Shown here: positions 1 to 14,006 of the stretch, piece by piece
Numbering within the stretch: position 1 is the first letter of the stretch
How the letters are laid out: each line of letters opens with the position of its first letter
Source: an archaeon
Lineage (GTDB): Archaea > Nanobdellota > Nanobdellia > Pacearchaeales > GW2011-AR1
NCBI GenBank assembly: GCA_043811855.1
Contig: JBDRMT010000004.1
Location: 973-32,972 of the forward strand
DNA length: 32,000 nt
Direction: 5' to 3'
Program-made: the position numbers and the translations under genes
The notes under the pieces: generated by a model
Databases searched by the model: none
What the model was told of the DNA's origin: nothing
Seen by the model: the letters and a program-made list of their open reading frames with translations, nothing else

Positions 1-857
1 TTAGATTCTAAGATTTTTGGAGCTATAAACCTAAGGTTTGTTAATAATGGTTTAAAATCTTTTTTTTCTAAAAATTCTTCAATTGATTCTGTTGTTATCA
101 ACTCTGATTTTGGATAAATTTCTTGTCTTTGTTTTAAAAATCCTGCTAAGTTTTGTTCACTATTAAATCCAAAAAATATAGCGTCAGGATTTTTTTCTTT
201 TGCTTTTGTTATTGGAGTTCTTAAATCTGTATCTGTAGGATTTATTTTATATTCAGCTAGTATTTGAATTTCATATTTTTCTGAACCTTTTCTTAGATTA
301 AAAACAGTATCTTCCCAAAAAATATCATTTGATCTTATTATTACTATATTGTTAATATTATTTTCAGATATATATTTAGGTAAAATTTGTAATTCTGCAT
401 CAGATCTATACCATGTAACAAATATGTTTTTATAATTTTCTTCACTTTTGACAGCAGTTACAGCTGCACTCGGCTCCATCATTATAATGTTCTTTGTATT
501 TGATAATGGAGCAGGTCCTAAAAAAGTATCCATCCAAGTAGGTCCTATTATAACATCAACATTATCTACTTCTATTAATTTTGTTACAGCAGAAAGAGTA
601 TCTTTTTGTTCTGATTTAGTATCTTCAATAATCAATTTAACTTTTTTCCCATTAACCCCTCCAAGTTCATTAATCTCTTCGATTGCTAGTAAAGCTCCAT
701 TTCTATCTGCTTCTCCCCAAGTATTAGCAAATCCAGTTAGACCAAATGCTCCTCCTATTTTAATAACATCCTCCTTTTGCTCTTTAGGCATAAATGCAAT
801 TATAAGGGCAATTATTATGATTACAATAATAAGTATTAATAAACTCTTTTTTTTCAT
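1..857 (-). CDS. LivJ-type (type I periplasmic-binding-protein fold) ABC substrate-binding protein, membrane-anchored; 3' end outside the window
   Basis: The minus strand is open from ATG (857-855) to the window edge. My translation is MKKKSLLILIIIVIIIIALIIAFMPKEQKEDVIKIGGAFGLTGFANTWGEADRNGALLAIEEINELGGVNGKKVKLIIEDTKSEQ... It has an N-terminal TM anchor and the IKIG..LTG motif shared with five paralogs in the window. It is absent from the ORF track because it runs off the edge. The 448..861 + ORF is its antisense shadow. Confidence 0.8.
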   Translation of the reverse strand, partial: MKKKSLLILIIVIIIIALIIAFMPKEQKEDVIKIGGAFGLTGFANTWGEADRNGALLAIEEINELGGVNGKKVKLIIEDTKSEQKDTLSAVTKLIEVDNVDVIIGPTWMDTFLGPAPLSNTKNIIMMEPSAAVTAVKSEENYKNIFVTWYRSDAELQILPKYISENNINNIVIIRSNDIFWEDTVFNLRKGSEKYEIQILAEYKINPTDTDLRTPITKAKEKNPDAIFFGFNSEQNLAGFLKQRQEIYPKSELITTESIEEFLEKKDFKPLLTNLRFIAPKILES

Positions 858-887
858 TTAGAAAGTAAGAGAATATATTTTAAAAGT

Positions 888-1988
888 CTATTGGTTGTAA
901 AGCTCTAATTCTCCATTAACAATCTTTACAGAATACATAACAGGATTAATTTCTCCATTAGATTGAATATCTACTTTTCCATTTAAGCTGTCAAATGTTT
1001 TGAGATTGATTATGTTTTGAGCAATTGCTTCTCCATTTAACTTTTGTCCATTAGTTGCTTTAGCAACTAATCTTATTATGTCATATCCAAAATCAGCTCC
1101 TAAAGAAGGGTCCTTGTTATAAGTTTCTTTATAATTATTTTTAAACTCAGAATCCTGCATTAAAAATAGAGCAGCAGATGTATAGACTCCATCTGCTGAA
1201 GCTTGTTTTCTTGTTGATTCAGCTGAAAGAACTGAAGAAGATTCATATAAATCAGCATCTATCTGCAGTTCATTAAATTCTTCTACAATGTTAATTCCTT
1301 CTATTGGTGTTGAGCTTACAAACATAATCATTTCTGGATTTTTAGATTTAATTTTAGATAGTTGAGTTTTAAATTCAGTAGTTCCAGGGTTAAAATTTTC
1401 TTCAGCTACAATATCTATTTGTTTTTCTTCAGCACGTTTTTTAATATGATCTGAAACAGAAACTCCATATTCATCATTAATATACAATAATCCCATTGTA
1501 TTGTAATCTCCTATATTTATATTATTAAAATGAGAGTCTGCATATGCTTTTTCATCTACATAAAATCTAAATGCATAAGGGCTTTCATCAGCAACTCCTT
1601 TTGCTGCAACAATGGTCATAATTAAAGGGATTTTATCATTATCAACTAATGATATAATAGGAATACTAACCCTACTAAAAGCAGAAACAACAACATCAAC
1701 ATCTTTTAATTTTAGACTTTGATATGCTGAAATAGCTTCTTTTGAATCTGCTTTACTATCTTCATAAATAAATTTTATATTAATTCCTTCTTGAGATAAT
1801 TCTTGTTGTGCAATTTCCATACCATTTTTAATTGATTCTCCCCACACAGATGCTCCTCCTGTCAAAGGGAGTATTGCTCCAATAGTTAGGGTTTCAGAAT
1901 TTGTTTTGGGCATAAGAGCTATTACTAAAACAATTATAACAATTAATAGAATAACTAGAAGAATTATAAGTTTGTTCTTGTTTTTCAT
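888..1988 (-). CDS. LivJ-type ABC substrate-binding protein, membrane-anchored (class A, MPK... linker)
   Basis: 366 aa. It has an N-terminal hydrophobic anchor followed by LTIGAILPLTGGASVWGE and INIKFIYEDSKADSKEA, typical of Leu/Ile/Val-binding-protein family receptors. ATG confirmed at 1988-1986. Confidence 0.85.
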   Translation of the reverse strand: MKNKNKLIILLVILLIVIIVLVIALMPKTNSETLTIGAILPLTGGASVWGESIKNGMEIAQQELSQEGINIKFIYEDSKADSKEAISAYQSLKLKDVDVVVSAFSRVSIPIISLVDNDKIPLIMTIVAAKGVADESPYAFRFYVDEKAYADSHFNNINIGDYNTMGLLYINDEYGVSVSDHIKKRAEEKQIDIVAEENFNPGTTEFKTQLSKIKSKNPEMIMFVSSTPIEGINIVEEFNELQIDADLYESSSVLSAESTRKQASADGVYTSAALFLMQDSEFKNNYKETYNKDPSLGADFGYDIIRLVAKATNGQKLNGEAIAQNIINLKTFDSLNGKVDIQSNGEINPVMYSVKIVNGELELYNQ

Positions 1989-2018
1989 GGATAATAGAGG
2001 AATGAGTGGTTTAAAAAA

Positions 2019-3092
2019 TTAATTGATTAAAACAAGTTGGCCCTCTTTGACCAGGTATATTCTCTCAACTCTGTCAAGACTTCCTGAAGGTCCAATGACT
2101 TCTACTAGTCCTTGCTGTAAGTTATTAGGATTAATTTTATATGCATTTTCAATTGTCTTAAGACCATCATATCCAAAAGATACAAGAGTAATATCAATTG
2201 GCTCTTCACCAAATTTTTCAAAATATTTTTGTTTTAAAACATTAACATTCTCAACATAAATGTTTGTGAAGATAATACCTTCTGCTGCATTTCCAGATGC
2301 ATCAATTACATCTTGTATAATTGAATCTCCAGCTAAGATCTGTGCATCAATTCCTAATTCTCTTTTTTGGGTTATAAAATCTGCAATGACTGGAGGGACC
2401 AAAGGAGCATAAATTGCATCAACATTTTTATTTTTAATTTTTAAAAGAGCTGTTCTATAATCTCTTTCATCAGGATTATAAGTTTCATGAATTACAATCT
2501 CTCCTCCTAAGGTAACAAATTTATTCATAAAAGCTTTTGAAATTATCTCAGACCAAACGTCTTTATGAGATATAACTGCAATTTTTCTTAATTTTAATTC
2601 ATTAAAGGCAAATTCTGCCATTTTTTCTCCAGATTTCTCTGTTGAAAACCCGGTGCTAAACAGATTATCAGATTCATAAATAAAATTTGTACTATCCCAT
2701 ACAACAAGCAAGGGAATTTTTTTATTATTGAAAATCGGAGCAATAGGTTTTGCTACCTCAATCATTGTAGTTAAACCAACATCAATATTATCAATGTTTG
2801 TTAACTTATTTGCAGAATTAATAGCTGCAATACTGTTAAAACTTTCTTCATCTTCATAAATAACTTTAATATCTAAATATGATTCATCTAAAGCTAGTTT
2901 TATTCCCCTACTAACTTCCTGACCAATATAACTATAATCTCCTGATAAAGGCAAGATTGCTCCAACAACTAAATCTTTATTATTTTTAATACTAAATCCT
3001 GTCATTATAAAAGTATTAACTAAAATTAACAACATTACTCCTAGTATTGCTATAATAACAATTATTTTTATTGTATTATTTTTGTTTTCCAT
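2019..3092 (-). CDS. LivJ-type ABC substrate-binding protein, membrane-anchored (class B, FSIKNNKD linker); module 1
   Basis: 357 aa. TM anchor, then TGFSIKNNKDLVVGAILPLSGDYSYIGQE. Divergent from the TrmB gene at 3172. Confidence 0.85.
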   Translation of the reverse strand: MENKNNTIKIIVIIAILGVMLLILVNTFIMTGFSIKNNKDLVVGAILPLSGDYSYIGQEVSRGIKLALDESYLDIKVIYEDEESFNSIAAINSANKLTNIDNIDVGLTTMIEVAKPIAPIFNNKKIPLLVVWDSTNFIYESDNLFSTGFSTEKSGEKMAEFAFNELKLRKIAVISHKDVWSEIISKAFMNKFVTLGGEIVIHETYNPDERDYRTALLKIKNKNVDAIYAPLVPPVIADFITQKRELGIDAQILAGDSIIQDVIDASGNAAEGIIFTNIYVENVNVLKQKYFEKFGEEPIDITLVSFGYDGLKTIENAYKINPNNLQQGLVEVIGPSGSLDRVERIYLVKEGQLVLIN

Positions 3093-3126
3093 AACAAAAA
3101 CTTAATAGAAAGATTTATATATTTAG

Positions 3127-3146
3127 TTAGTATGATATCATACTAA
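3127..3146. promoter_or_regulatory. 20-bp perfect palindrome TTAGTATGATATCATACTAA between back-to-back TATA-like boxes; candidate TrmB operator
   Basis: I read it directly and it is its own reverse complement. It lies between TATA-like gatttatatattt (3112-3124, about 26 nt from the minus-strand ATG at 3092) and ctaatataaatg (3143-3154, about 23 nt from the ATG at 3172). Confidence 0.5.
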
Positions 3147-3171
3147 TATAAATGATAATTTGATAAAAAAT

Positions 3172-3894
3172 ATGAAAAACATATTAAGACAAATTGGGCT
3201 AACAGATTATGAAGCAGAAGTTTACATAGTATTGCTTGCACACGGCCAATTGTCTGCTTATGAATTAGCAGAAAAAGCAGGATTATACAGACAGGTAACT
3301 TATGACACATTAAAAAGGCTTCAAGAAAAAGCATTTGTAAGCTCAGTAACTAAAGGAAAAACAAAGCTCTTTAGGGCTTTGGATCCTAAATTAATTCTTG
3401 AAATATTAAATGAAAAAATAGATAATTTTAAGCAAGTTCTTCCAGAATTATCAAACCTTCAAAAACAATCTTCTGATAAAATTATTGTTGAAACTTACAA
3501 AGGTAAAAATGTCATGAGACTTGCATTTAGAGATATAATAAACCAATTAAAAAACAAAGGGGGGGAGGTCTTATGCACTGCTGTAGATGAAAATGTTCCA
3601 TTTACAGATTATGAAATTATCTGTGGACAATATGAAAGAGATATGATAAGATATAAGATTAAAGAAAGAATTATAATCAAACAAGGAGCAGAAGGCGTAT
3701 TTAAGAAAGGAACCTCTAAATATAAAAATATATCTAAAGAATATTTTAATGAAAACCCAGTCCAGATATATGGAAATAATGTTCATACAATAATCTGGGG
3801 TAATCCAGATTATTTAATAATTATAAGAAGTAAAGAAGTTGCTGAAAGTTATAGAAAGCAATTTGAGTTTATGTGGAAGCATGCAAGGGCTTGA
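3172..3894 (+). CDS. TrmB-family transcriptional regulator (wHTH + C-terminal domain), module 1
   Basis: MKNILRQIGLTDYEAEVYIVLLAHGQLSAYELAEKAGLYRQVTYDTLKRLQEKAFV matches the TrmB N-terminal wHTH pattern. The ORF-track start at 3160 is TTG, so I prefer the ATG at 3172. Confidence 0.85.
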   Translation: MKNILRQIGLTDYEAEVYIVLLAHGQLSAYELAEKAGLYRQVTYDTLKRLQEKAFVSSVTKGKTKLFRALDPKLILEILNEKIDNFKQVLPELSNLQKQSSDKIIVETYKGKNVMRLAFRDIINQLKNKGGEVLCTAVDENVPFTDYEIICGQYERDMIRYKIKERIIIKQGAEGVFKKGTSKYKNISKEYFNENPVQIYGNNVHTIIWGNPDYLIIIRSKEVAESYRKQFEFMWKHARA

Positions 3895-4305
3895 TCACAT
3901 TACAACATTAATACTCTTTATATTTAAAAATTCTTTATCAAAAGTTATTAAATCTCTTATTTTATAAATATCCATATAAGCAATTATTATACAATCTGTA
4001 AAGCTAAATTTGGTTTGTTTTTGGTTTGAAAAAACTTCCCAAGCTTTATTAAAAGTATCTTCATTAATATGAGTAACTCCTATTGTTGATATGATATCAT
4101 TTCCTATTATTTTAACTTTATTAATATCTTTTAATAATCTTAAACAAACACCTATAACTTCATCAAAAATATGATCTAAAACAATAAAATTGTCTGAATA
4201 ATCTCTTATTTTTTCAGATAATTCTACTGCTTTTTTATGATGAACATCATCATCATTAAAATACGCTATTAAAAAATTTGCATCAAATAGTATCATTTTA
4301 TTCAT
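3895..4305 (-). CDS. vapC: PIN-domain toxin (VapC-like)
   Basis: ILFDANFLIAYFNDDD...VLDHIFDEV...FSFTDCIIIAYM...LITFDKEF shows the acidic PIN residues in the usual order. The ORF-track N-terminal extension (to 4422) overlaps the antitoxin gene. ATGs at 4305 or 4296 fit the 4298 stop of the upstream gene. Confidence 0.8.
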   Translation of the reverse strand: MNKMILFDANFLIAYFNDDDVHHKKAVELSEKIRDYSDNFIVLDHIFDEVIGVCLRLLKDINKVKIIGNDIISTIGVTHINEDTFNKAWEVFSNQKQTKFSFTDCIIIAYMDIYKIRDLITFDKEFLNIKSINVVM

Positions 4306-4546
4306 AAAGTATTTTATCAATTTCTTCACTAGCCCTTTCAGTTCCAGGACCCCAACTAAAGGGTTTAACTTGTAAAAATTTCTTTTTACTTTTATTCTTA
4401 ATTTTCTGTTTTTCTTTTTCAATATATAATTTCATTGCTAAAGTCAATGCATCACCTAGTTTTAGTCTTTGTTCAACTGATAAAGATCTAAATTTATTAT
4501 AAACTTCTTCATCAATTTCTCTAACTCCTATAAATGTTTTTCCCAT
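4298..4546 (-). CDS. Small antitoxin-like protein (VapB-type partner of the PIN toxin)
   Basis: 82 aa, immediately upstream of and overlapping or abutting the PIN gene. Its size, position and charged C-terminal half are typical of type II antitoxins. Confidence 0.6.
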   Translation of the reverse strand: MGKTFIGVREIDEEVYNKFRSLSVEQRLKLGDALTLAMKLYIEKEKQKIKNKSKKKFLQVKPFSWGPGTERASEEIDKILYE

Positions 4547-4564
4547 ATGTTAAACATGTTAAAC
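4547..4564. promoter_or_regulatory. Tandem ATGTTAAAC x2 containing the 12-bp palindrome TTAACATGTTAA; candidate VapB operator
   Basis: Read directly. It abuts the antitoxin ATG (4546-4544, minus strand). Confidence 0.4.
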
Positions 4565-4598
4565 AAGTATTTAAATGTTTTTGTTAGAAGTATCTTTT

Positions 4599-5723
4599 TT
4601 AATTAATTTCAACTACCTCTCCATCTTCATATATAAACATTGATTCTTTAATACTTCTTGCAACATGATCATCATCAATTGTAATTAATCCTGCAGCTCC
4701 TTGAAAATCTTTTGTATTTTCTAGGTTTGTTTTAATACATTTTATATCTTCTTGATAATTGCATTGGTTCATAGCATTTAGTAGAACAGATGCTGAATCA
4801 TAACCTGCTGTCATAAATAAAACATTATCAGGATCTTTGTTGTGTTCTTGTTTATAAGAATCTATAAGATTTAGGAATTTTGGATTATTTTCAGAACCTT
4901 GCCAAAATGTAAATATTAAACCATTGATATTTTCTTTATTTCCTGCATTTTTTTTAAAATCTTCACTTACAAAAGTATCTATTCCTATAATTTCTGAATT
5001 AATATTTAATTCTTTTGCTTGTTTTACTATTCTTCCTGTTTCTTCCCAACCAATCATTACTATATTATCTTGGGTATTCACTTTAGTTAAAATTGATCTA
5101 AAGTCTGTTGTTGAAAAAGAATAATCTTCTTCTATTACTTGTCCTTTAAATCTTTGTTTAAATGAATTTTTTGTTAAAGTTGAAAATGCATCATCTAGAT
5201 TAGTTATTAACCCTGCACTTTCTGCATTGTTGTTATTTAAATAATCTGCAATAGCATAACCAATGCTTTCATCATATATTCCTATTGAAAAGGTATTATC
5301 ATTTAAATTAGAAAACTCTTCACTTGAATCAAGACTGTTTATTAGCAAAACATTATCTTTTTCTGCTTTATCTGTTAAAGCTAAAAATCCATCATAAGTA
5401 TTTATGAATATTATTTTAACTCCTTGAACATATACAAAATTATTATATGCATCAATTGCTTGTCTTGCATCATATTGGTCATCTTGAACAAACAGCTTTA
5501 TTTTATTATCTTGGTTAATCTCGTCTATTGCAAGTTTAATGCCATTAAGATTTTCAGTTCCAACAACAGCTCCTTCTCCTGTTAAAGGTCCTATAAATCC
5601 TATTTTAATTGTATCTTTATTATCTTTAATAGCAAATTGTGTTATTGATATCTCAAATATAGTTAAGGCTATAATTACCATTATGACTATTATTCCAATG
5701 ATTTTTATTTTTCTTCTTTCCAT
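4599..5723 (-). CDS. LivJ-type ABC substrate-binding protein, membrane-anchored (class B); module 2
   Basis: 374 aa. TM anchor, then TQFAIKDNKDTIKIGFIGPLTGEGAVVGTE. Divergent from the TrmB gene at 5839. Confidence 0.85.
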   Translation of the reverse strand: MERRKIKIIGIIVIMVIIALTIFEISITQFAIKDNKDTIKIGFIGPLTGEGAVVGTENLNGIKLAIDEINQDNKIKLFVQDDQYDARQAIDAYNNFVYVQGVKIIFINTYDGFLALTDKAEKDNVLLINSLDSSEEFSNLNDNTFSIGIYDESIGYAIADYLNNNNAESAGLITNLDDAFSTLTKNSFKQRFKGQVIEEDYSFSTTDFRSILTKVNTQDNIVMIGWEETGRIVKQAKELNINSEIIGIDTFVSEDFKKNAGNKENINGLIFTFWQGSENNPKFLNLIDSYKQEHNKDPDNVLFMTAGYDSASVLLNAMNQCNYQEDIKCIKTNLENTKDFQGAAGLITIDDDHVARSIKESMFIYEDGEVVEIN

Positions 5724-5771
5724 TTTGTTTTATTTTATGTTTATTTTGTTACTACCATTCGGTTTAATTTT

Positions 5772-5805
5772 AGTATTTATACTTATGTCGTAAGTTTTAC
5801 TACGA
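5772..5805. promoter_or_regulatory. Inverted repeats AGTAT-TT-ATACT (5772-5783) and TCGTA-N8-TACGA (5788-5805) in the divergent module 2 promoter region
   Basis: Read directly. The AGTAT/ATACT half-sites are the same as in the 3127-3146 palindrome. TATA-like aaatatttaaatagg (5805-5818) lies about 28 nt before the ATG at 5839. Confidence 0.3.
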
Positions 5806-5838
5806 AATATTTAAATAGGTGAAAATCTATTATTTTCT

Positions 5839-6567
5839 ATGAAAGAAGAACTACATGACTTTGGTTTAACAGAAAATGAAATTAAGACATACTTAGTCCT
5901 ACTAAAGTTAGGAAATGCAAATCCTTCTGAAATAGCTGAAAAAACAGGATTTTCACGTCCTTATGTATATGATATTTTAGAGAGATTATTAGAAAAAAGT
6001 ATTGTTTCTTTTGTTTTAAAGAAAAATAAAAAGTATTATTCTGCTATTGAACCTAGTTTGTTAGAGGAATTAGCAAAACAAAGACTTGATAATATTAAAA
6101 AGATTGTTCCTGATTTAGAGAAGATTAAAAAATCTATTGATGAAGAAATTAAAGTTGAGTTACATAAGGGTGAGTGGGTTTTTAAGATGTTATTAAATGA
6201 TGTTTTATCTATCTTAAAAAAGAATGATGAAGTGTTAATTTATGGCATTGATGAATTATCTATTTTTAAATTAAACAAATTCATGCCTATGTATTTGGAT
6301 CAATATTTTCATAGAATTATAAAAATGAAGACAAAAGAAAGAGTGATTATTGCAGAGGGTGGAAAAAGGTTTCCAGAAGCAACTACTACTAAATATAAAA
6401 CTCTTCCAAAGGAAATTATAGGAAATACTTCTTTTTTTCTTTATGCAAATAAAGTTGCTATTTTTCTCTGGGGAATACCTAATTATCTTATTTTAATTGA
6501 AAACAAAAGAGTTGCAGATTCATATAGAAATCAGTTTGAAATGTTATGGAAAGCTGCTAAAGCCTGA
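5839..6567 (+). CDS. TrmB-family transcriptional regulator, module 2
   Basis: LHDFGLTENEIKTYLVLLKLGNANPSEIAEKTGFSRPYVYDILERLLEKSIV is the wHTH. The C-terminal NYLILIENKRVADSYRNQFEMLWKAA is shared with the other two paralogs. Confidence 0.85.
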   Translation: MKEELHDFGLTENEIKTYLVLLKLGNANPSEIAEKTGFSRPYVYDILERLLEKSIVSFVLKKNKKYYSAIEPSLLEELAKQRLDNIKKIVPDLEKIKKSIDEEIKVELHKGEWVFKMLLNDVLSILKKNDEVLIYGIDELSIFKLNKFMPMYLDQYFHRIIKMKTKERVIIAEGGKRFPEATTTKYKTLPKEIIGNTSFFLYANKVAIFLWGIPNYLILIENKRVADSYRNQFEMLWKAAKA

Positions 6568-7689
6568 TTAATTAACCTCTACAGCTTTTCCATCCTTTAC
6601 TTTCATCATTACAAAATCTTTTGTAAATCCACCTTTACCATCACTTATTAAATGGCCTGATACTCCGTTGTATTCCTTAATATTATTAAGATATTCTTGT
6701 AAAGCTGTTGGGTTTGTTGAACCTGTTTGTTCAATAGCTTCTGCAATCATCATAACTGCATCATATGCAGAATCAGCACCTATATCAATATCTTGATTAA
6801 AAGTTTGTTTATATCTTTGTTCAAAGTCTTTTGTTGGAGTTAAAGATGTTAAAAAGATCATATCATTGTATGCTCCATCTGATGCTTCTATAATAGCATT
6901 ATCTACTGTTACTGAATACAAAGGGAGATTAACTCCTATTTCCTTAATACGTTTTACAACTGAAACTCCTATAATATATTCTCCTGAAGTTACTACAACT
7001 GCATCAATATTTTTTGCATTTTTAATTTTTAGTGCATCTGTTGTTACTTCTGTTTCTCCTGGTAAAGGTTCAACTAAAACTTCAACTTTCCCACCTAACT
7101 CTTCAAATCTACTTTTAAATGCAATTGTTTGATCTTTAACCCAGGGTTGTTGAGCACCAATCATAGCTACTTTTCTATGACCTTCTTTATAGACTAAATC
7201 TGCAAGATTTTTAGATAGTATATAGTCATGAGGCCAGGTATTGAACAAAAATTCACTATTTTCATTAAAATCTTTTACTCCTAATGAAGGTGATATCATT
7301 AAAACTTTATTATCACGAGCTAAATCTTTTAAAGCTAGTCCTGCAGGTGTCCATGTGGTTCCAATTATAATATCAATATCTTGAACATCTACTAAATTTC
7401 TAAAAGCATTAATAGCTTTTGTAGGATCTCCTTGGGAATCTTGATGATTAACAATAAGTTTTTTACTATTAATTCCTCCACCATCATTAATATCCTTAAC
7501 AGCTAAGTCTATTCCATTTTTAGAAGCAATTCCCCAACTAGAACCTTCATTAGTTAATATTAATATGCTTCCTAGATTTATTGTATCTTTATTATTTTTA
7601 ATACTAAATTCTGTTATAAAAAATGTATTTATTGCAAGCAAAGCTACAACTAAGATTGTTACTATTGCTATTATTTTTTTGTTTCCCAT
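6568..7689 (-). CDS. LivJ-type ABC substrate-binding protein, membrane-anchored (class B, divergent ligand-site motif); module 3
   Basis: 373 aa. TM anchor, then TEFSIKNNKDTINLGSILILTNEGSSWG. Its stop abuts the module 2 TrmB stop with no gap (6567/6568). Confidence 0.85.
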   Translation of the reverse strand: MGNKKIIAIVTILVVALLAINTFFITEFSIKNNKDTINLGSILILTNEGSSWGIASKNGIDLAVKDINDGGGINSKKLIVNHQDSQGDPTKAINAFRNLVDVQDIDIIIGTTWTPAGLALKDLARDNKVLMISPSLGVKDFNENSEFLFNTWPHDYILSKNLADLVYKEGHRKVAMIGAQQPWVKDQTIAFKSRFEELGGKVEVLVEPLPGETEVTTDALKIKNAKNIDAVVVTSGEYIIGVSVVKRIKEIGVNLPLYSVTVDNAIIEASDGAYNDMIFLTSLTPTKDFEQRYKQTFNQDIDIGADSAYDAVMMIAEAIEQTGSTNPTALQEYLNNIKEYNGVSGHLISDGKGGFTKDFVMMKVKDGKAVEVN

Positions 7690-7754
7690 TTTATTACCTT
7701 CTGAGAGTCATATTTAATAACTCACTCTCCAATAATGGAGGAGAAAAAGAAAGG

Positions 7755-7770
7755 TTTATATATATAAAAA
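7755..7770 (+). promoter_or_regulatory. Archaeal-type TATA (tttatatatataaaaa) preceded by AAAGG, about 25 nt upstream of the ATG at 7785
   Basis: Read directly. The same AAAGG+TTTTTATAA arrangement occurs at 17774-17787, about 25 nt before the ATG at 17808. This suggests leaderless transcripts. Confidence 0.45.
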
Positions 7771-7784
7771 ATATTATAAATATA

Positions 7785-8513
7785 ATGGATACTCAAATAC
7801 TAGAAGACTTGGGATTTACAAATGCAGAGATTAAGATATATTTGGCCTTATTAGAATTAGGTAAAACTAGTGTAGGGCCAATAATTGAAAAATCTGGATT
7901 ACAAAGCTCTGTTGTGCATACAACAATTCATAAACTAGTGAATAAAGGTTTTGTTTCTTTTATTAAAGAAGGTCAGAGAAATCATTATAGTGCAGCAAAT
8001 CCAAAGCATATTTCTAATTATATTGATGATAAAAAGAAAGAATTTGAAGAATTATTGCCTTTTCTTTTATCTAAGCAAGATAAAGCAACAAAAAAATCAG
8101 AAGTAACAACATATTTGGGAATAAAGGGAGTTAGAGAATTATTATATGAATTATTAGAAGCAGGAGGGAAAGAGCATCATACATTAGGATCTTCGATTGA
8201 TTCGGTTATGATGGGAGATGCTTTTTGGTCAAATTATCATAAAAGAAGGATTGATAAAGGGATAAAGGCAAAATTACTGTTTAATGAATCACTTAAGACT
8301 TGGACTTTAAAAAATAAGTATCCTAATGCTGAATATAAATTTACAAAATCTGGATTTGAACCTTTAACTGAGACAATAATCAGAAACGATAAAGTGGGGA
8401 TAATTATTTGGGTTACTCCTCCCCTAGGAATTTTAATTCATAATAAGGTTGCTGCTGAAAGTTATGATAAGTTCTGGAAAATTATTTGGGATAGTATTAA
8501 GAAAGTTTATTGA
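7785..8513 (+). CDS. TrmB-family transcriptional regulator, module 3
   Basis: MDTQILEDLGFTNAEIKIYLALLELGKTSVGPIIEKSGLQSSVVHTTIHKLVNKGFV. The ORF-track N-terminal 54 residues (from 7623) overlap the SBP gene and look like antisense noise. Confidence 0.85.
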   Translation: MDTQILEDLGFTNAEIKIYLALLELGKTSVGPIIEKSGLQSSVVHTTIHKLVNKGFVSFIKEGQRNHYSAANPKHISNYIDDKKKEFEELLPFLLSKQDKATKKSEVTTYLGIKGVRELLYELLEAGGKEHHTLGSSIDSVMMGDAFWSNYHKRRIDKGIKAKLLFNESLKTWTLKNKYPNAEYKFTKSGFEPLTETIIRNDKVGIIIWVTPPLGILIHNKVAAESYDKFWKIIWDSIKKVY

Positions 8514-8524
8514 AAGTTAAATAA

Positions 8525-9259
8525 TCACTCACCTAAATAAGCTTCTAGAACAGCTTTATTGTTCTTGATTTCAGATGGAGATCCTTCTGCAATAACTTTT
8601 CCTTCATCCATAACAATGACATGATCTGCAATTCCTAAGGTGAAGTTCATGTCATGCTCTATTAGGAGGACTGTTTCTCCTTGTTTTTTAAGCTTAGTGA
8701 GTAGGTCTGAGATTTGTTTTCTTAATTTAGGATTTACACCTGCAACTGGTTCATCTAACATAAGTAGTTTATGAGGATTAATAATTGCCCTTGTTATTTC
8801 TACTAATCTTTTTTGACCAAAACTTAATTCTCCTGCTTGCTTGTTCATAAAGTCTGTTATTCCTACTAGTTCTGCAGTTTTTTTAACTTTGTTGTAATCT
8901 TCTTGAGAAAATTTATAATTTATTAGATTTTTCCAAAATTCTGTATCTTTATTGCTTAAGGCAAGAAGAAGATTTTCTTTAACACTTAGATTATCAAATA
9001 ATCTTGCTTGTTGAAATAACCTAGATATTCCTAGATTAGATATTTTATGAATCTTCATCTTAGTAATATCTTGTTTATTAAAATATATTTCACCTGAATC
9101 TGGTTTTAAAGTTCCAGTTGTAAGATTAAATATTGTTGTTTTTCCACTTCCATTTGGACCTATTAATGCTGTTATCTTATTATCTTTAATTTCAAAACTA
9201 GCATTATCTACTGCTTTTATTCCTCCAAAATGTTTTTTTAAGTTAGTTATTTTTAGCAT
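8525..9259 (-). CDS. livG: Branched-chain amino acid ABC transporter ATP-binding protein, LivG type
   Basis: MLKITNLKKHFGGIKAVDNASF..GPNGSGKTT (Walker A), LSFGQKRLVEITRA (signature), LLMLDEP (Walker B), LIEHDM, and the C-terminal EAYLGE typical of LivG. Start taken at the ATG at 9259, 24 codons inside the ORF-track call. Confidence 0.9.
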   Translation of the reverse strand: MLKITNLKKHFGGIKAVDNASFEIKDNKITALIGPNGSGKTTIFNLTTGTLKPDSGEIYFNKQDITKMKIHKISNLGISRLFQQARLFDNLSVKENLLLALSNKDTEFWKNLINYKFSQEDYNKVKKTAELVGITDFMNKQAGELSFGQKRLVEITRAIINPHKLLMLDEPVAGVNPKLRKQISDLLTKLKKQGETVLLIEHDMNFTLGIADHVIVMDEGKVIAEGSPSEIKNNKAVLEAYLGE

Positions 9260-9263
9260 TTTA

Positions 9264-9860
9264 TTATTTACTCTTAGGTATTTCTGAATCTTCAAATATT
9301 TTATTGTTAAATTTAACCCAACGAGAAACAACTTTTAATAAATAGTTTGAACGATAAAACTCACTTTCTCTTTTATTTTCAAAATAGGTATAAAGAACAA
9401 CCTCGATTTTCATTTTTTCTTTAATCATACTAATTATTGGTGCAAAATCTGAGTCTGAAGAAATTAATATAATTTTCTTAATTTTTGGAAATTCCTCTCT
9501 AAATAAACATAAATCAGCTACAATCCAGGAATCTACTCCTTTTTGATTAAAGATTAGGTCACCTTCTTTTGTTATAATTTTTTGACATCTGCCTTCTCTT
9601 ACTGTAATCCAATTCTTTTTATCCAACATTTTTTTAAAATTATCATATTTTTTCTTTCTATATTTTTCATCGTCTGTTGGAGTATTGCTTTGAAAAGGAG
9701 GAGCTACATAGACATACATATGTTTTAAATTAAGATTTTCATTTTTACATATATTTTTAAAAGTTTGTAAAAACTTCTTCTTTTTACCAGATTTTTTTTG
9801 AAAATATCTTTTAACTAATCTAAAAAATCCATCGTCAACAAATATAATTGTATCTTCCAT
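9264..9860 (-). CDS. NYN-domain (LabA/DUF88-like, PIN-fold) ribonuclease
   Basis: IIFVDDGFF..., NQKGVDSWIVADL and ILISSDSDFAPII match the three acidic NYN motifs. A strong SD (GGAGGTG) lies 8 nt upstream of the ATG. The stop is 4 nt from the livG ATG. Confidence 0.75.
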   Translation of the reverse strand: MEDTIIFVDDGFFRLVKRYFQKKSGKKKKFLQTFKNICKNENLNLKHMYVYVAPPFQSNTPTDDEKYRKKKYDNFKKMLDKKNWITVREGRCQKIITKEGDLIFNQKGVDSWIVADLCLFREEFPKIKKIILISSDSDFAPIISMIKEKMKIEVVLYTYFENKRESEFYRSNYLLKVVSRWVKFNNKIFEDSEIPKSK

Positions 9861-9997
9861 TAATAAACACCTCCAATAAAAGTTAATAGATTAAAAAACA
9901 TCTGGCGACCGCAAAGATCACCAGGGAATATACTCACAGTCCTAAGACTGTTAATAATATTAGTTCTTTCTTCTTTATAAACTTTATTATTGTCCAT
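9860..9997 (-). CDS. Candidate 45-codon ORF whose stop overlaps the NYN start (TAATG); may instead be non-coding leader RNA
   Basis: My translation is MDNNKVYKEERTNIINSLRTVSIFPGDLCGRQMFFNLLTFIGGVY*. I saw no SD. It contains the two hairpins listed below. It is below the ORF-track size cutoff. Confidence 0.3.
   Translation of the reverse strand: MDNNKVYKEERTNIINSLRTVSIFPGDLCGRQMFFNLLTFIGGVY
9893..9951 (-). terminator. Two GC-richer hairpins followed by a U6 tract on the minus-strand RNA; candidate terminator or attenuator ahead of NYN-livG
   Basis: On the minus strand, ACAGUC-UUAG-GACUGU (9951-9936) is a perfect 6-bp stem. CUGGUGA-N9-UCGCCAG (9924-9902) gives 7 bp including one G-U. UUUUUU follows (9898-9893), about 25 nt before the NYN SD. 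Confidence 0.35.
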
Positions 9998-10113
9998 TTT
10001 ATTTTTTGTAAATTTATTAGTATATGTTAAACTTAAGAGGGGAGAGTGGTCTTGATTGCTTAACTAAGGTATTCCTCCTTTTAGTTATATAAGTTATTAA
10101 TAGGTTTAGCATT

Positions 10114-10527
10114 TTATATCTCTTCATATCTTTTGAGTTTACTTATTATTTCAGGTATTTGTTTTAATGCTTCTTTAGCTGTTTCCAAGTTTAAATCTTC
10201 TCCATAATAATTAATACCATTTCTTATTTTTCTGTATCTATCAAATTTTATAGAAATAGACTCTTCTTTTAATATTTCTTTTAAAAAATAGGTAATTGAA
10301 ATGTGATCTAGAAATTTATATCCCTTTAAATATCCTATTGCTTCAATAAACTCCCTAAGACCTTCATACAGCTCTCTAAATATTGTTTTTGAAGTATTAT
10401 TATCTAGAGGTATTATTTTTGCTGTTTCAATTGCTTGTGAATGAAATTTAACCATACTTTTTGCTCTGATTGTATTGATCTCTGCTCTTTTTACCTTTCC
10501 TAATTTTAAACATGTATTAAAATCCAT
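10114..10527 (-). CDS. HEPN-domain protein (partner of the upstream nucleotidyltransferase)
   Basis: 137 aa, all-helical looking, with C-terminal FDRYRKIRNGINYYGEDLNLETAKEAL resembling the HEPN R..RN..Y block. Its start overlaps the stop of the MNT gene (TAATG at 10525-10529). Confidence 0.7.
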   Translation of the reverse strand: MDFNTCLKLGKVKRAEINTIRAKSMVKFHSQAIETAKIIPLDNNTSKTIFRELYEGLREFIEAIGYLKGYKFLDHISITYFLKEILKEESISIKFDRYRKIRNGINYYGEDLNLETAKEALKQIPEIISKLKRYEEI

Positions 10528-11057
10528 TATAAAACCTCTAATTCTCCTGATAAGACTATCCCATTTGCAATATTATTTATCAGAGAGGGATTAGTTTTTT
10601 TTAATTTTACTAAAGATGATTGTGAAAATACTTTTAAGTTTATCTCTTTATTTAGTGTTTTTTCATACTTAGAAACATTAAATTCCTTATTAATATCTGT
10701 TATTACGCAAATATCAATGTCACTTGTTACATCATCCTTTGCCTTTGAATAGCTTCCATATAAAACAATAACAGGATAATCATAATATTTTTCTAAATCT
10801 TGTATTATATTTGATTTTCTTATTTTTTCCATATTACAATATAGTTTTAAATTACTTACTTTTTCAGACTCTAATAACTTATAAGAAGAATAAATCTTAC
10901 CTTTTTCTAATTCTAATATTCCTTCTTTAACAAACTTATTAAGATACTGTCTTACAGTTGTATGATTAATATTAGTAAGCCTAGCTATTTCTCTTATATG
11001 GAACTCCCTATTTGGTTCTTCAAAAAAAGGTTTTAGTATGTTTAATCTTGTTTCCAT
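10527..11057 (-). CDS. wHTH-fused minimal nucleotidyltransferase (MNT) of a HEPN/MNT pair
   Basis: N-terminal IREIARLTNINHTTVRQYLNKFVKEGIL (wHTH), then LYGSYSKAKDDVTSDIDICV (the GS-X10-DxD polymerase-beta-type NTase motif). Confidence 0.8.
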   Translation of the reverse strand: METRLNILKPFFEEPNREFHIREIARLTNINHTTVRQYLNKFVKEGILELEKGKIYSSYKLLESEKVSNLKLYCNMEKIRKSNIIQDLEKYYDYPVIVLYGSYSKAKDDVTSDIDICVITDINKEFNVSKYEKTLNKEINLKVFSQSSLVKLKKTNPSLINNIANGIVLSGELEVL

Positions 11058-11058
11058 C

Positions 11059-11076
11059 TGTAAATATATATTTACA
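11059..11076. promoter_or_regulatory. 18-bp perfect palindrome TGTAAATATATATTTACA directly upstream of the MNT start; candidate promoter/operator
   Basis: Read directly. It is TATA-containing and lies in the 41-nt livM-MNT spacer. It is flanked by an 11-bp direct repeat tgtttccatct (11049-11059 and 11089-11099). Confidence 0.45.
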
Positions 11077-11098
11077 AGTGTTTATAAATGTTTCCATC

Positions 11099-11971
11099 TT
11101 ATTTTAATTGAACTTTTCCGTCAAATCCCTTTGGTTTATATATTAAAATAAGTAATAGGATTAAAGCATAAATTATTTGTCTAGCAGGTCCTACAACTGA
11201 GCTTGGGAATCCAACAAATCTTAGTATTTCTGGTAATATTATTAAGACTATTGTTGCAACTACTGTCCCTCTTAAACTTGCTAGTCCTCCAACAATAACA
11301 ATTAATAAAACAGGAATTAACTGCATTATTGTAAATGAGCTTGGATCTATAAAAGTTATATAATGTGCATATAAACTTCCTGCAATTCCTGCAAAAAAAG
11401 CAGAAACAATTAATGAAGTTGCTTTGACTTTAAATGTATTTTTTCCTAAAGTTTTAGAAGCAAGTTCATCATCTCTAACAGATTCTAATACTTTTCCAAA
11501 AGGAGATATTGTAATCTTTTTAATAACAAGATAAGAAATTATCACTATTATTATTGTGAATATAAGGAAGGCAAGATTGCTTGAAATACTAAATCCAAAA
11601 ATGCTTGGTTTTGGAATTCCAGGAAGTCCTAAGGGACCTCTTGTAAGTTCTGTCCAGTTTAGTAAAACAGCATAGACAACAAAGGAAAATCCCATAGTTG
11701 CAAGTGCAAGATAATCTCCTTTTAGCTTATGGGTGGGTATTGAAAGAAAAAAACCAAAAAGTCCTGCTATTAATCCTGCTAGTAAAAATGCTATCCAAAA
11801 TGGCCAACCTAACAAAGTTAGTAATGCAGATGTGTATGCTCCTATTCCAAAAAATGCAATATGCCCTAAATTAAGCAAGCCTGTAAATCCTATTGCTAAC
11901 TGAAGTGAAATTGCTAATATAATGTAGATTCCTATTAATATTAGTATGTGAATAAAATATGCTTCTATCAT
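11099..11971 (-). CDS. livM: Branched-chain amino acid ABC transporter permease, LivM type
   Basis: 290 aa and polytopic. GLLNLGHIAFFGIGAYTSALL is the LivM-type signature. Its ATG overlaps the upstream SBP stop (ATGA). Confidence 0.85.
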   Translation of the reverse strand: MIEAYFIHILILIGIYIILAISLQLAIGFTGLLNLGHIAFFGIGAYTSALLTLLGWPFWIAFLLAGLIAGLFGFFLSIPTHKLKGDYLALATMGFSFVVYAVLLNWTELTRGPLGLPGIPKPSIFGFSISSNLAFLIFTIIIVIISYLVIKKITISPFGKVLESVRDDELASKTLGKNTFKVKATSLIVSAFFAGIAGSLYAHYITFIDPSSFTIMQLIPVLLIVIVGGLASLRGTVVATIVLIILPEILRFVGFPSSVVGPARQIIYALILLLILIYKPKGFDGKVQLK

Positions 11972-13122
11972 TTTATATCTTTATATGGGATAATTTTCCC
12001 ATTTTTTACTATTTTAAGTTCAAATTCTCTTAATACATCTCCATTTTCATCAAAAGATATTTCACCAGATATTCCTTGATGATTTTTTATTTTAAATAGT
12101 TCATTTTTAATACATTCGGTTTTATCATCAGAACCACATTCTTCAATAGCTATTCCTATAACAATAACAGAATCATAGGCTCTTGCAGCATATATTTCTG
12201 GTTCAGTTTGATATTTCTTTTTATATTGTTCTATAAAATTTTTCATATTTTCATCGCCTGAATCAAGATTAAATTCAGGTGCTGCAATGAATAATCCTTC
12301 TGCAGCATCTCCTGCAATTGTGAATAATTCTTCTCCTCCAAAAATAGCTTGGGAACTAAATATCTGTAAATCTAAATCAAGTTCTTTGGAATTTTTAAGT
12401 AAATAACCTCCTTCTTTTGTATAAGGCGCTATATAAAGAGCATCAGGTTTGCTAGCTTTAACTTTATTAATATGAGTTCTAAAATCAACATCTCCTACAT
12501 TAAATGCTTCTGAAATTACAATCTCTCCACCAAGATTTTTAAACTCTTCTTCAAAAACTCTTTTTACTCCTTCTCCATAATCATTATTAATATATAATGA
12601 AGCAACTTTTCTTATATTAAAATCATTATACATGATTGTTGCAAGATTTTTCATTTCTAAATCAGCAGTTTCATAGGTTCTAAAAGTAAAATCTCCTTGA
12701 GTTGAATAATCTGGAGAAGCTGTTGCAACACCTATTTGAATAACCTTATCCTCATTAACTAAGGGTGTTAAAGCTATACCAACTCCTGAACCCATAGTTA
12801 TAATAATATTAACATTATTAAAATTCCTTAATTTGTTATATGAATTAATAGCTAATTTAGGATCTACTTGAGCATCTTCATATATTATCTCTATCTTTTT
12901 ACCATTAATTCCATTATTAGAATTTATTTCATCCTTTGCGAATTCAAGGCCATTCTGGATCCACTCTCCTTGATTAGCAATGCTTCCAGTTAATGCTAAA
13001 ATTGCTCCTATTTTTATAGTTTCATCTTGCTGTTTTGGTATGAAAATAAGTAAGTTTATAACTAAGATTATGATTATTAAAATAACCAACCAAGTTAATA
13101 GAGTTTTATTTTTAGATTTCAT
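11968..13122 (-). CDS. LivJ-type ABC substrate-binding protein, membrane-anchored (class A), embedded between livH and livM
   Basis: 384 aa. TM anchor, then ETIKIGAILALTGSIANQGEW and GINGKKIEIIYEDAQVDPKLA. There are ATGA overlaps at both ends (13119-13122 and 11968-11971). Confidence 0.85.
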   Translation of the reverse strand: MKSKNKTLLTWLVILIIIILVINLLIFIPKQQDETIKIGAILALTGSIANQGEWIQNGLEFAKDEINSNNGINGKKIEIIYEDAQVDPKLAINSYNKLRNFNNVNIIITMGSGVGIALTPLVNEDKVIQIGVATASPDYSTQGDFTFRTYETADLEMKNLATIMYNDFNIRKVASLYINNDYGEGVKRVFEEEFKNLGGEIVISEAFNVGDVDFRTHINKVKASKPDALYIAPYTKEGGYLLKNSKELDLDLQIFSSQAIFGGEELFTIAGDAAEGLFIAAPEFNLDSGDENMKNFIEQYKKKYQTEPEIYAARAYDSVIVIGIAIEECGSDDKTECIKNELFKIKNHQGISGEISFDENGDVLREFELKIVKNGKIIPYKDIK

Positions 13123-14006
13123 TTATCCTTACCTCCACCTCTTTTAATTCCTAAAATACCATTAGGTCTGAAAAGTAGGAATAAGAATAATAAGATAAAT
13201 GCAATTGCATCTTTATATCCTGAAGGGAGATACCAGATTCCAAAGTTTTCAGAAAATCCAAGTAAAAAAGCTCCTAAGATTGCTCCTGGAACACTTCCAA
13301 TTCCTCCAATAATTGCACCTGTAAATCCTTTTATTATAAGACTTGTTCCCATTGTTGGCTCTAGATTTTGTTCAAGAGCAATAAGAACTCCTGCAATTCC
13401 TGCAATTGCACTTCCTATAATAAAACTATAATTATATATTTTTTTAGAATTTATTCCTACAATTTCTGCAACATCTTTATTATCTGCAACAGCCCTCATA
13501 GCTTTTCCTATTTTTGTTTTTTTCATAAATAAGAAGAGTAAGAGTAACAAAACAAGAGAGGTTACTACAATAAAAATCTGTAGAGGGGTTATTATTGCTC
13601 CTAAAAATTCCATTCCTTTAGCTACTTTAATATAGCCTATTGTTTTAACATCTGCTCCAAAGAAAATTAAAATTACTGATTCTAAAAGTATTAATAATGC
13701 AAAGCTTGCTATAAGGAGTATTACACTACTTGCTTTTCTTTTTCTTAACTCTTTGTAAACAACTATGTTCATTAAATAGCCCATAACTCCTCCAAAGGCT
13801 ATTGCTAAAATTGCTGAAACAAAAAAATTAAATCCTAAAATTGAAAATAAAAAATAAAGAAAATAAGCTGAAAATGCAATTGTTGCTCCGTGTGCAAAAT
13901 GAATAAATTTATTAACAGAATAAATTAATGAAAAACCTGAAGATACTAATGCGTAGATAGATCCTGCAATTAATCCATTGATAAGTAACTGGGTTGCTAT
14001 TGACAT
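13119..14006 (-). CDS. livH: Branched-chain amino acid ABC transporter permease, LivH type
   Basis: 295 aa and polytopic. LINGLIAGSIYALVSSGFSLIYSVNKFIHFAHG matches the LivH N-terminal NFAHG-type motif. SD GAGGTG lies 5-6 nt upstream of the ATG. Confidence 0.85.
   Translation of the reverse strand: MSIATQLLINGLIAGSIYALVSSGFSLIYSVNKFIHFAHGATIAFSAYFLYFLFSILGFNFFVSAILAIAFGGVMGYLMNIVVYKELRKRKASSVILLIASFALLILLESVILIFFGADVKTIGYIKVAKGMEFLGAIITPLQIFIVVTSLVLLLLLFLFMKKTKIGKAMRAVADNKDVAEIVGINSKKIYNYSFIIGSAIAGIAGVLIALEQNLEPTMGTSLIIKGFTGAIIGGIGSVPGAILGAFLLGFSENFGIWYLPSGYKDAIAFILLFLFLLFRPNGILGIKRGGGKDK

Follow-up and report, generated by a model that had tools for sequence, protein, structure and literature searches.

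Divergent pairing of short TrmB-family regulators with LivJ-type receptor genes at an importer locus of a Pacearchaeales archaeon

Introduction

Why would an importer with a single translocator be accompanied by six receptor genes, and why would three of these genes each face a regulator gene of their own? The question is raised by a 32,000-nt stretch of DNA (hereafter, the window) from the archaeon GW2011-AR1 (Pacearchaeales; assembly GCA_043811855.1, contig JBDRMT010000004.1, forward-strand positions 973-32,972), in which genes of a Liv-type ATP-binding cassette (ABC) importer are found together with genes for six LivJ-type receptors (S1 to S6) and three short TrmB-family regulators (T3, T4, and T5). 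The G+C content of the window is about 28%; the genomes nearest to it were assembled from metagenomes and carry the labels Candidatus Woesearchaeota, Nanoarchaeia, or Pacearchaeota, and its own sequence was detected in groundwater and biofilm metagenomes. To our knowledge, gene regulation has hardly been explored in DPANN archaea, which are not yet cultivable alone. In this study, we followed up a preliminary description of the locus by computational analysis. The reading that we favor, with a probability of roughly 60%, is that T3, T4, and T5 are local, autoregulated one-component regulators, each controlling the adjoining receptor gene via a bidirectional promoter, with the receptor set being tuned gene by gene.

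Results

Three receptor genes are each divergent from a regulator gene

The genes read from position 14006 to position 1 form a minus-strand series comprising LivH, S6, LivM, a nucleotidyltransferase gene, a 137-aa open reading frame (ORF), an NYN gene, LivG, and S5 to S1, with a PIN gene and an 82-aa ORF preceding S3. Three plus-strand genes, T3, T4, and T5, are set among them, each divergent from a receptor gene (S3, S4, and S5, respectively). The three divergent units reported in the preliminary description were found again from ORF coordinates and Pfam matches, and the second and third do meet stop-to-stop, at 6567/6568; a PIN/VapC-like gene pair sits between the first and second. The likely regulator starts are ATG 3172 for T3 and ATG 7785 for T5, rather than those of the longest ORFs; an alternative start for T3 is TTG 3160.

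All six receptors matched the Peripla_BP_6 profile (PF13458) at 115.6-182.1 bits against a cut-off of 31.7 bits, with expectation values (E) from 1e-33 to 3e-53, and every one of them opens with an N-terminal hydrophobic helix. These matches bear out their earlier designation as six paralogous, membrane-anchored binding proteins. Pairwise identity among the six is 22-29%, and only 25-28% among S3, S4, and S5. Their closest solved structures are Leu/Ile/Val- and amino-acid-binding proteins (for example, S6 matched 3TD9 at 3e-39 and S5 matched 4N0Q at 2e-18). When the LivJ/LivK NCBIfam model NF011933 (PRK15404) was used, S6 was the best match among the five complete receptors (158.6 bits; 2e-46) and S2 to S5 scored 33-63 bits, all of these values being below the cut-off of 477. 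In LivK, we take the residues that hold the alpha-amino and alpha-carboxylate groups to be Ser79, Thr102, Tyr202, and Glu226. Alignment of S6 with LivK matched Ser112 with Ser79 and Tyr234 with Tyr202, but placed Gln258 at Glu226. The other five receptors differ from LivK at most of the binding columns, in an alignment that is weak (about 25% identity). Specificity for amino acids, to which the term "amino-acid-type receptors" used previously points, is plausible for S6 only.

A patch of about 34 nt, which encodes F[SA]IK[ND]NKD just after the membrane helix, is near-identical in S3 (about 2975-3010), S4 (about 5610-5645), and S5 (about 7575-7610; columns 91-125 of the receptor alignment). Outside this patch the three receptors are about 26% identical. 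It is also present in an S4-ortholog fragment of a related locus (L005), and is absent from S1, S2, S6, the S5 orthologs of L065, L074, and L075, and the S3 ortholog of L020. The patch may have arisen by gene conversion, or may serve as a common processing signal or as a cis element within the genes.

The regulators have the architecture of TrmBL2

T3, T4, and T5 matched the TrmB winged helix-turn-helix (wHTH) profile PF01978 at 62.7, 65.3, and 48.1 bits, respectively (cut-off, 25.6 bits), and are homologous to one another over their full length (27-40% identity; E 1e-22 to 5e-25), with T3 and T4 sharing 40%. At the sequence level, their match to TrmB, TrmBL1, and TrmBL2 is confined to the first 100-126 residues or so. 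The TrmB and TrmBL1 equivalog models gave 26-43 bits against cut-offs of 600-650, the TrmB model by itself giving 29-43 bits against 600, and no TrmB effector-domain family was found among the Pfam matches of the three proteins. An AlphaFold (AF2) model of T4, built from 65 homologs (mean predicted local distance difference test score, 93.4), comprises a wHTH (residues 1-70), a long helix (73-97), and a single alpha/beta domain (105-239), after which the protein ends. When this model was searched with Foldseek, the best match was TrmBL2 (5BPD) over the full length (E 1.1e-13; probability 1.00; about 270 aligned columns), with TM-scores of only about 0.4 and a different relative placement of the domains. 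Further matches were TrmB (2e-9), the phospholipase D (PLD)-family nuclease NucT (2e-6), and the TrmB sugar-binding domain (3e-4).

The TrmB fold that the preliminary description assigned to the regulators is thus upheld by the PF01978 matches of all three and by the structural matches of the T4 model. As judged from the T4 model, they are TrmB-family proteins with the architecture of TrmBL2 (wHTH, helix, and one PLD-like domain) and without the second, sugar-contacting subdomain, to which the Gly320/Glu326 region of sugar-sensing TrmB belongs. A length of about 240 aa is not without precedent, as TrmBL2 and TrmBL3 are already known as 264-aa members in which about 70 residues of the sugar-binding part are missing (PMC4158304), and TrmBL2 is what the T4 model matches best. 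Orthology is a separate matter: the TrmBL2 model NF041141 gave 19.5-34.7 bits for T3 and T4 against a cut-off of 530, no match to it was reported for T5, and by these sequence comparisons T3, T4, and T5 are not TrmBL2 orthologs. The family profile recovered 3418 cluster representatives with E<=1e-30; relaxing the threshold to E<=1e-10 raised the count to 12699. Many relatives of the regulators (P0096, P0098, P0110, and P0126) have one wHTH followed by two to seven tandem C-terminal PLD-like domains; one example is 1061 aa long, with seven matched stretches.

Each regulator has a private, conserved predicted operator

In all three regulator groups, orthologs share a palindrome whose placement with respect to the TATA box of the regulator gene does not vary. 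Each of these predicted operators sits in the intergenic region of its own regulator, and the three palindromes are mutually unrelated. In the T3 group, the conserved palindrome TTCGTATGA(T/A)ATCATACTA lies between the TATA box and the ATG at seven loci; the copy in the window is a perfect 20-bp palindrome, the single occurrence in 32 kb, where 0.11 were expected. In the T4 group, the conserved site TGTCGTAG-N6-CTACRA lies immediately upstream of the regulator TATA box, with a second TATA-like box opposite (5774-5781 and 5810-5817 in the window). It was found in 11 T4-group loci, irrespective of the divergent gene, and once in the window (0.03 expected). In the T5 group, the conserved site CTCTCCA-N4-TGGAG is followed by a purine-rich stretch and then by the TATA box; it was found in 4 + 3 loci (including L065, L074, L075, L122, L125, and L126) and once in the window (0 expected). 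There it is located between the TATA-like box of S5 (7711-7719, minus strand) and a purine-rich stretch, resembling a TFB-recognition element (BRE), with the TATA box of T5 (7755-7762). When about 130 related loci were searched for additional T4 and T3 operator sites, none was found away from the regulators' own promoters, and the DNA covered gave no sign of a wider regulon.

The existence of three different, private predicted operators fits separate control of each receptor. Moreover, the Tyr-Asp pair that contacts DNA in TrmB (Tyr50-Asp51) is, by alignment, kept in T3 and T4 and is His-Thr in T5, which fits a T5 operator unrelated to the T3 and T4 sites.

Inspection of the window sequence placed a TATA-like box about 26 nt away from the start codon of each of S3, S5, T4, and T5. 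A spacing of about 26 nt separates the element TTTATATATTT from the S3 ATG on the minus strand and, on the plus strand, from the right arm of the T3 operator; the TATA position is kept in T3 orthologs. Read with the -26/-27 TATA rule (PMC4158304), this arrangement suggests leaderless transcripts from back-to-back promoters, with the predicted operator between or overlapping them. A scan for sigma-70 promoters showed no enrichment (98 sites, 91 expected), the sigma-70 consensus being irrelevant to archaea.

Receptor/regulator pairs recur in related Liv loci

Recurrence was assessed in a sample of 80 metagenomic loci encoding a LivM 42-79% identical to that of the window, which were annotated with profiles of the window proteins. 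These loci contain 115 receptors and 36 TrmB-like genes. Divergent pairing with a receptor gene was observed for 27 of the 36, and four of the nine unpaired genes are cut by a contig end. By a looser adjacency count, there were 29 divergent pairs, compared with 4.8 +/- 1.8 (maximum, 14) in 2000 label shuffles, and the pairs in Liv loci were always in divergent orientation. At least one pair was present in 13 of the 42 loci of at least 8 kb; L065, L075, and L079 have four or five pairs, and L046 has nine receptors and zero regulators. The paired regulators form more than 20 clusters at 45% identity, and paired status clusters among the nearest neighbors of the receptors (odds ratio, 6.4; p 4e-4). 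Where a Liv system is present, receptor genes are the commonest divergent partner. Full-text literature searches found no description of this receptor/regulator arrangement, in agreement with the earlier view that one-to-one pairing of short TrmB homologs with receptors is an undescribed architecture.

Two of the three pairs are co-inherited

Because a broad TrmB alignment was too divergent for a genome scan, a narrower T4-group alignment was used, which biases the sample toward relatives of T4 and T3. T4 belongs to an orthogroup with 54-68% identity in about ten other genomes, and T3 to one with 60-71% identity in about seven other genomes (L017-L025). The T5 orthogroup is very large, with 693 matches at E<=1e-20 and more than 120 proteins at least 64% identical. 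Thus, the modules are diverged and are not recent duplicates, as was previously held: they belong to separate, old orthogroups of the Woesearchaeota type, each conserved widely, with receptors as dissimilar as stated above.

When the partners of orthologous regulators were compared, the T5-S5 pair was recovered in L065, L074, and L075, where the regulators are 56-73% and the receptors 53-64% identical and the partner ranked first of more than 100. The T3-S3 pair was recovered in L020 (regulator 60% and receptor 42% identical; partner ranked first of 110). By these comparisons both pairs, T5-S5 and T3-S3, are inherited together. Among related loci, L005 is nearest to that of the window, with a LivM 83% and a LivG 78% identical. 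It retains the S4-T4 pair, with the S4 ortholog present as an N-terminal fragment beside the T4 ortholog; between T4 and LivG it has a different TrmB-like/receptor pair and an S5 ortholog without a regulator. In another locus, L126 (2270-3378), an S5 ortholog (53-59%) near a T5 ortholog is split into pieces of 101 aa and 235 aa, with residues 88-137 or so missing, and is either a pseudogene or an assembly error.

The translocator is complete just beyond the window edge

LivH and LivM matched PF02653, and LivG matched PF12399 and the LivG model (4e-72). The stop and start codons overlap between the LivH, S6, and LivM genes. A public contig, L119, is 99.9% identical to the window over 6401 bp and extends 972 bp further left. 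On this contig, the full S1 is 372 aa long, and a 234-aa ATPase (L119 6665-7369; E about 5e-69 for both LivF and UrtE models) starts 1 nt downstream. Because this LivF ATPase adjoins S1 just past the left edge of the window, the importer is a complete LivH-LivM-LivG-LivF system of the HAAT type, with LivF outside the window on the near-identical contig. The preliminary description was correct in counting one permease pair, and no further permease was found at the locus, but its single ATPase was an artifact of the window edge. The receptor array accordingly stands between the two ATPase genes, and the order LivG, several receptors, LivF recurs in the related loci L039, L046, and L065. Coordinates of all features are given in Table 1.

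Table 1. Genes and predicted regulatory sites of the receptor/regulator locus, in window coordinates.
Feature	Position	Strand	Basis or remark
S1, LivJ-type receptor	1-857	-	Peripla_BP_6 3e-35; N-terminal 285 aa inside window
S2, membrane-anchored LivJ-type receptor, 366 aa	888-1988	-	Peripla_BP_6 3e-37
S3, receptor paired with T3, 357 aa	2019-3092	-	Peripla_BP_6 5e-33
Palindromic TATA-like element TTTATATATTT	3114-3124		Sequence inspection; putative promoter function
T3 operator (predicted), perfect 20-bp palindrome TTAGTATGAT/ATCATACTAA	3127-3146		Ortholog conservation
T3, short TrmB-family regulator, 240 aa	3172-3894	+	PF01978 3e-17
PIN (VapC-like) gene	3895-4305	-	PIN 6e-13; co-directional with S4
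82-aa ORF upstream of PIN	4298-4546	-	Gene call taken from L119
S4, receptor paired with T4, 374 aa	4599-5723	-	Peripla_BP_6 1e-39
T4 operator (predicted) TGTCGTAAGTTTTACTACGAAA	5786-5807		Core TCGTA-N8-TACGA at 5788-5805
T4, short TrmB-family regulator, 242 aa	5839-6567	+	PF01978 5e-18
S5, receptor paired with T5, 373 aa	6568-7689	-	Peripla_BP_6 2e-49
T5 operator (predicted) CTCTCCA-ATAA-TGGAGGAG	7725-7743		Ortholog conservation
T5, short TrmB-family regulator, 242 aa	7785-8513	+	PF01978 1e-12
LivG-type ATPase, 244 aa from ATG 9259	8525-9259	-	LivG equivalog model 4e-72; BCA_ABC_TP_C domain
NYN-domain gene	9264-9860	-	Family match
137-aa ORF	10114-10527	-	Without family match
MntA-like nucleotidyltransferase with N-terminal wHTH	10527-11057	-	Family match
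LivM	11099-11971	-	BPD_transp_2 (LivH/LivM matches 9e-40 and 2e-52)
S6, receptor	11968-13122	-	Peripla_BP_6 3e-53; LivJ model 2e-46
LivH	13119-14006	-	BPD_transp_2 (LivH/LivM matches 9e-40 and 2e-52)

Neighboring genes and other features of the window

The nucleotidyltransferase gene, the 137-aa ORF, and the NYN gene lie inside the Liv operon, between LivM and LivG (9264-11057), and the stop codon of the NYN gene overlaps the start of LivG. The nucleotidyltransferase/137-aa pair occupies the equivalent place in L005 (4666-5612), at 58-65% identity. A hairpin followed by a T-run is found at 9924-9902 on the minus strand. The PIN gene abuts the stop codon of T3 and is overlapped by the 82-aa ORF, both being downstream of S4. 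Neither the 137-aa ORF nor the 82-aa ORF had a family match in Pfam or NCBIfam; from gene position only, our guess would be HEPN for the former and VapB for the latter.

Elsewhere in the window, a phosphoribosylglycinamide synthetase (PurD-type ATP-grasp) gene at 29083-31401 (minus strand) is broken by roughly 400 additional residues, which gave a LAGLIDADG-like match and are probably an intein. A sugar-1-phosphate nucleotidyltransferase at 21646-22883 (minus strand) is present in two ORFs, an NTP_transferase part (22086-22883) and a hexapeptide C-terminal part (21646-22056); the gene could be genuinely split or frameshifted, or the sequence could be in error at this point. A Glu/Leu/Phe/Val dehydrogenase gene at 25942-27192 (plus strand) would fit the use of imported amino acids, and a membrane-anchored DAC-domain (c-di-AMP cyclase) gene is located at 27185-27781 (minus strand).

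Discussion

How would the paired regulators act? In the arrangement that we propose, an extra array of membrane-anchored receptors would have accreted between the LivG and LivF genes, and S3, S4, and S5 would each share a short (80-115 bp) back-to-back promoter region with their own regulator. We infer that each regulator would bind DNA as a dimer, at its own palindrome between the two core promoters, and that the bound regulator would control both its own gene and the neighboring receptor gene. With TrmBL1, Tgr, and VNG1451C, a site upstream of the BRE/TATA element activates, and a site at or after the transcription start represses (PMC4158304). By analogy, the T3 site would be in the position of a repressor, since it follows the T3 TATA box, coincides with the expected start, and reaches across the upstream flank of the S3 promoter, and the T4 and T5 sites, each of which precedes both flanking TATA boxes, would be in the position of an activator in TrmB relatives; occlusion of the BRE at the T4 and T5 sites is equally possible. 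Binding would be switched by a ligand, for which the C-terminal domain may be the sensor, and the receptors offered to the single translocator, whatever substrates they may prove to bind, would be adjusted gene by gene.

The reach of T3 may be wider than one receptor. S3, S2, S1, and LivF all run in one direction and are separated by 30, 30, and 1 nt, so that expression of three receptors and an ATPase subunit may depend on T3. A T/A-rich box is present at -28..-21 in each of the 30-nt gaps (S3-S2 and S2-S1), and these boxes could be separate leaderless promoters.

Several observations weigh against this reading, most of them through an alternative that we regard as unlikely and yet as the strongest of its competitors. 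According to that alternative, the TrmB-like proteins are core regulators of their own gene or of distant targets, they adjoin receptor genes because genes of both kinds collect in a dense accessory region with rapid turnover (the locus also harbors toxin-antitoxin-like and NYN genes), and they do not control the receptor genes. Within the window, three receptors (S1, S2, and S6) lack a private regulator; the low G+C content makes chance TATA-like strings frequent, by which promoter assignments are weak alone; and a search for RNA runs carrying the window sequence found none, only eight DNA runs. Beyond the window, in long contigs and genomes representative of their species, T4 orthologs had no receptor neighbor in nine loci with upstream context, facing small unknown ORFs or radical SAM enzymes instead. 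A LivJ-type receptor gene stands beside T3 orthologs in only one of six loci (L020), the other divergent neighbors being aminotransferases (class I/II in L022 and L025), a radical SAM/SPASM enzyme, and an NMT1-type receptor. The last of these is a membrane-anchored binding protein, the first gene of another ABC operon, in L018 (2405-4961), where the T3 ortholog is 66% identical. Beside T5 orthologs, a LivJ-type receptor was seen in one of five lineages sampled outside Liv loci; the divergent neighbors include unknown proteins, a membrane protein, a HAD/PEP-utilizer/TIM operon, and the split S5-like receptor. As the operator and promoter position are retained in T3, T4, and T5 orthologs that face unrelated genes, the conserved function could be autoregulation alone. 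Receptor partners are also swapped in about half of the regulator lineages: the partner receptor was the top match in nine of 21 nearest-regulator comparisons, and regulators still 62-69% identical have partner receptors only 23-26% identical (in one example, 69% and 23%).

These observations qualify several earlier claims. One-to-one co-divergence is seen for T5-S5 and T3-S3, but fails in other lineages. Adjacency of receptor and TrmB-like genes in related genomes is enriched in Liv loci, but mostly gives way to unrelated neighbors outside them. The idea of one regulator per receptor gains from the three private predicted operators and loses from the orthologs elsewhere, which mostly face unrelated genes and are thus not dedicated receptor regulators. 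However, adjacency alone accounts poorly for what is found where a Liv system is present. Inside Liv loci, the pairs exceed expectation sixfold and are divergent every time, and two pairs are co-inherited. Moreover, the T4 operator and the T5 operator each have back-to-back TATA-like boxes on either side, in a region of 95-115 bp, so that the receptor promoter would hardly be unaffected by binding. We accordingly continue to favor local control of the adjoining receptor genes.

It might also be argued that the five extra receptors do not serve the Liv translocator at all, being orphan sensors, decaying copies, or receptors of another system. The weak LivJ-model scores (1e-8 to 1e-17) of the non-S6 receptors tested (S2 to S5), their differing binding-site positions (in the weak alignment noted above), and the one S5 ortholog that is in pieces (L126) could be read in this way. 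We nonetheless consider it improbable: the six receptor ORFs are intact and all on the same strand, the five extra ones stand between LivG and LivF in a layout that is repeated in L039, L046, and L065, and the locus yielded no other permease.

Two further alternatives can be dealt with briefly. That the short TrmB-like proteins are abundant chromatin proteins of little sequence specificity, as the best structural match and the shared domain architecture might suggest for relatives of TrmBL2, is very hard to reconcile with TrmBL2 equivalog scores of 19-35 bits against a cut-off of 530 and with three different palindromes conserved at fixed promoter positions across orthologs. Recent tandem duplication of one receptor/regulator unit within the locus would explain the threefold architecture, the 40% identity of T3 and T4, and the F[SA]IK[ND]NKD linker common to S3, S4, and S5, but we rejected it as highly improbable, since each of T3, T4, and T5 has an orthogroup of its own, with 54-80% conservation over many genomes, their operators are unrelated, and S3, S4, and S5 share a mere 25-28% identity.

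With the operator kept while the neighbor varies, the conserved unit is the regulator with its promoter region, and the divergent gene is the variable part. A broader and more doubtful idea, which we offer tentatively, is that the large and diverse short TrmB family of Woesearchaeota-type DPANN archaea might serve as portable cassettes, consisting of a regulator and a bidirectional promoter, that place whatever cargo gene lies beyond the operator under ligand control. Liv-type receptor genes would be the favored cargo, and the PLD-like domain, present in up to seven copies in some relatives, would be the sensor. If this were true, scavenging reduced cells would rewire nutrient capture by swapping cassettes and not whole transporters.

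The locus provides three sequence-predicted regulator/operator pairs that differ in their recognition helices and palindromes. If local control of the receptor genes is true, nutrient capture in reduced cells would be tuned per receptor of one shared importer, and the TrmB family would be extended from sugar control to amino-acid-type transport. The short TrmBL2-like form, known mainly from a chromatin protein, would then be what is usual in a large and sequence-specific regulator family (the 3418 representatives mentioned above).

Among known systems, paralogous receptors that share a translocator are familiar from Escherichia coli, in which LivJ and LivK, of different specificities, share LivHMGF under global regulators, as do HisJ and ArgT with their own translocator. 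Those systems have two receptors, whereas the present locus has six (and L046 up to nine), which are membrane-anchored and inserted between two ATPase genes, some of them with a private regulator. The nearest functional precedent for the regulators is TrmB of the trehalose/maltose ABC cluster of Thermococcus litoralis and Pyrococcus furiosus, which is encoded in an ABC importer cluster and exerts local control by binding a palindrome at the promoter of the binding-protein gene (PMC4158304). TrmB, however, has 338 aa and a two-subdomain sugar-binding domain, compared with 240-242 aa and no second subdomain here. One regulator there serves one sugar-binding protein; here, there are three regulators and three operators with HAAT (LivJ) receptors, and every regulator gene is transcribed away from the receptor gene beside it. 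In structure, TrmBL2 (TK0471/PF0496; PDB 5BPD and 5BOX) comes nearest, being of the same length class (264 aa) and architecture; it is a chromatin protein and global repressor that binds coding and intergenic DNA broadly (PMC4158304); T3, T4, and T5 differ from it in having 16-17% identity by structural alignment and lineage-specific palindromes in their own promoters. For TrmBL1/Tgr and Halobacterium VNG1451C, palindromic operators whose position decides between activation and repression have been reported, as has autoregulation (PMC4158304). Those proteins, about 340-360 aa long, sense sugars and act globally on large regulons, whereas each operator described here was found, in the DNA examined, only at its own promoter. 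The present locus differs from these precedents in a short architecture that apparently serves local, sequence-specific control, in HAAT receptors, in several regulators and operators per locus, in a receptor array that splits LivG from LivF, and in its DPANN setting; its biology extends known principles rather than introducing a new one.

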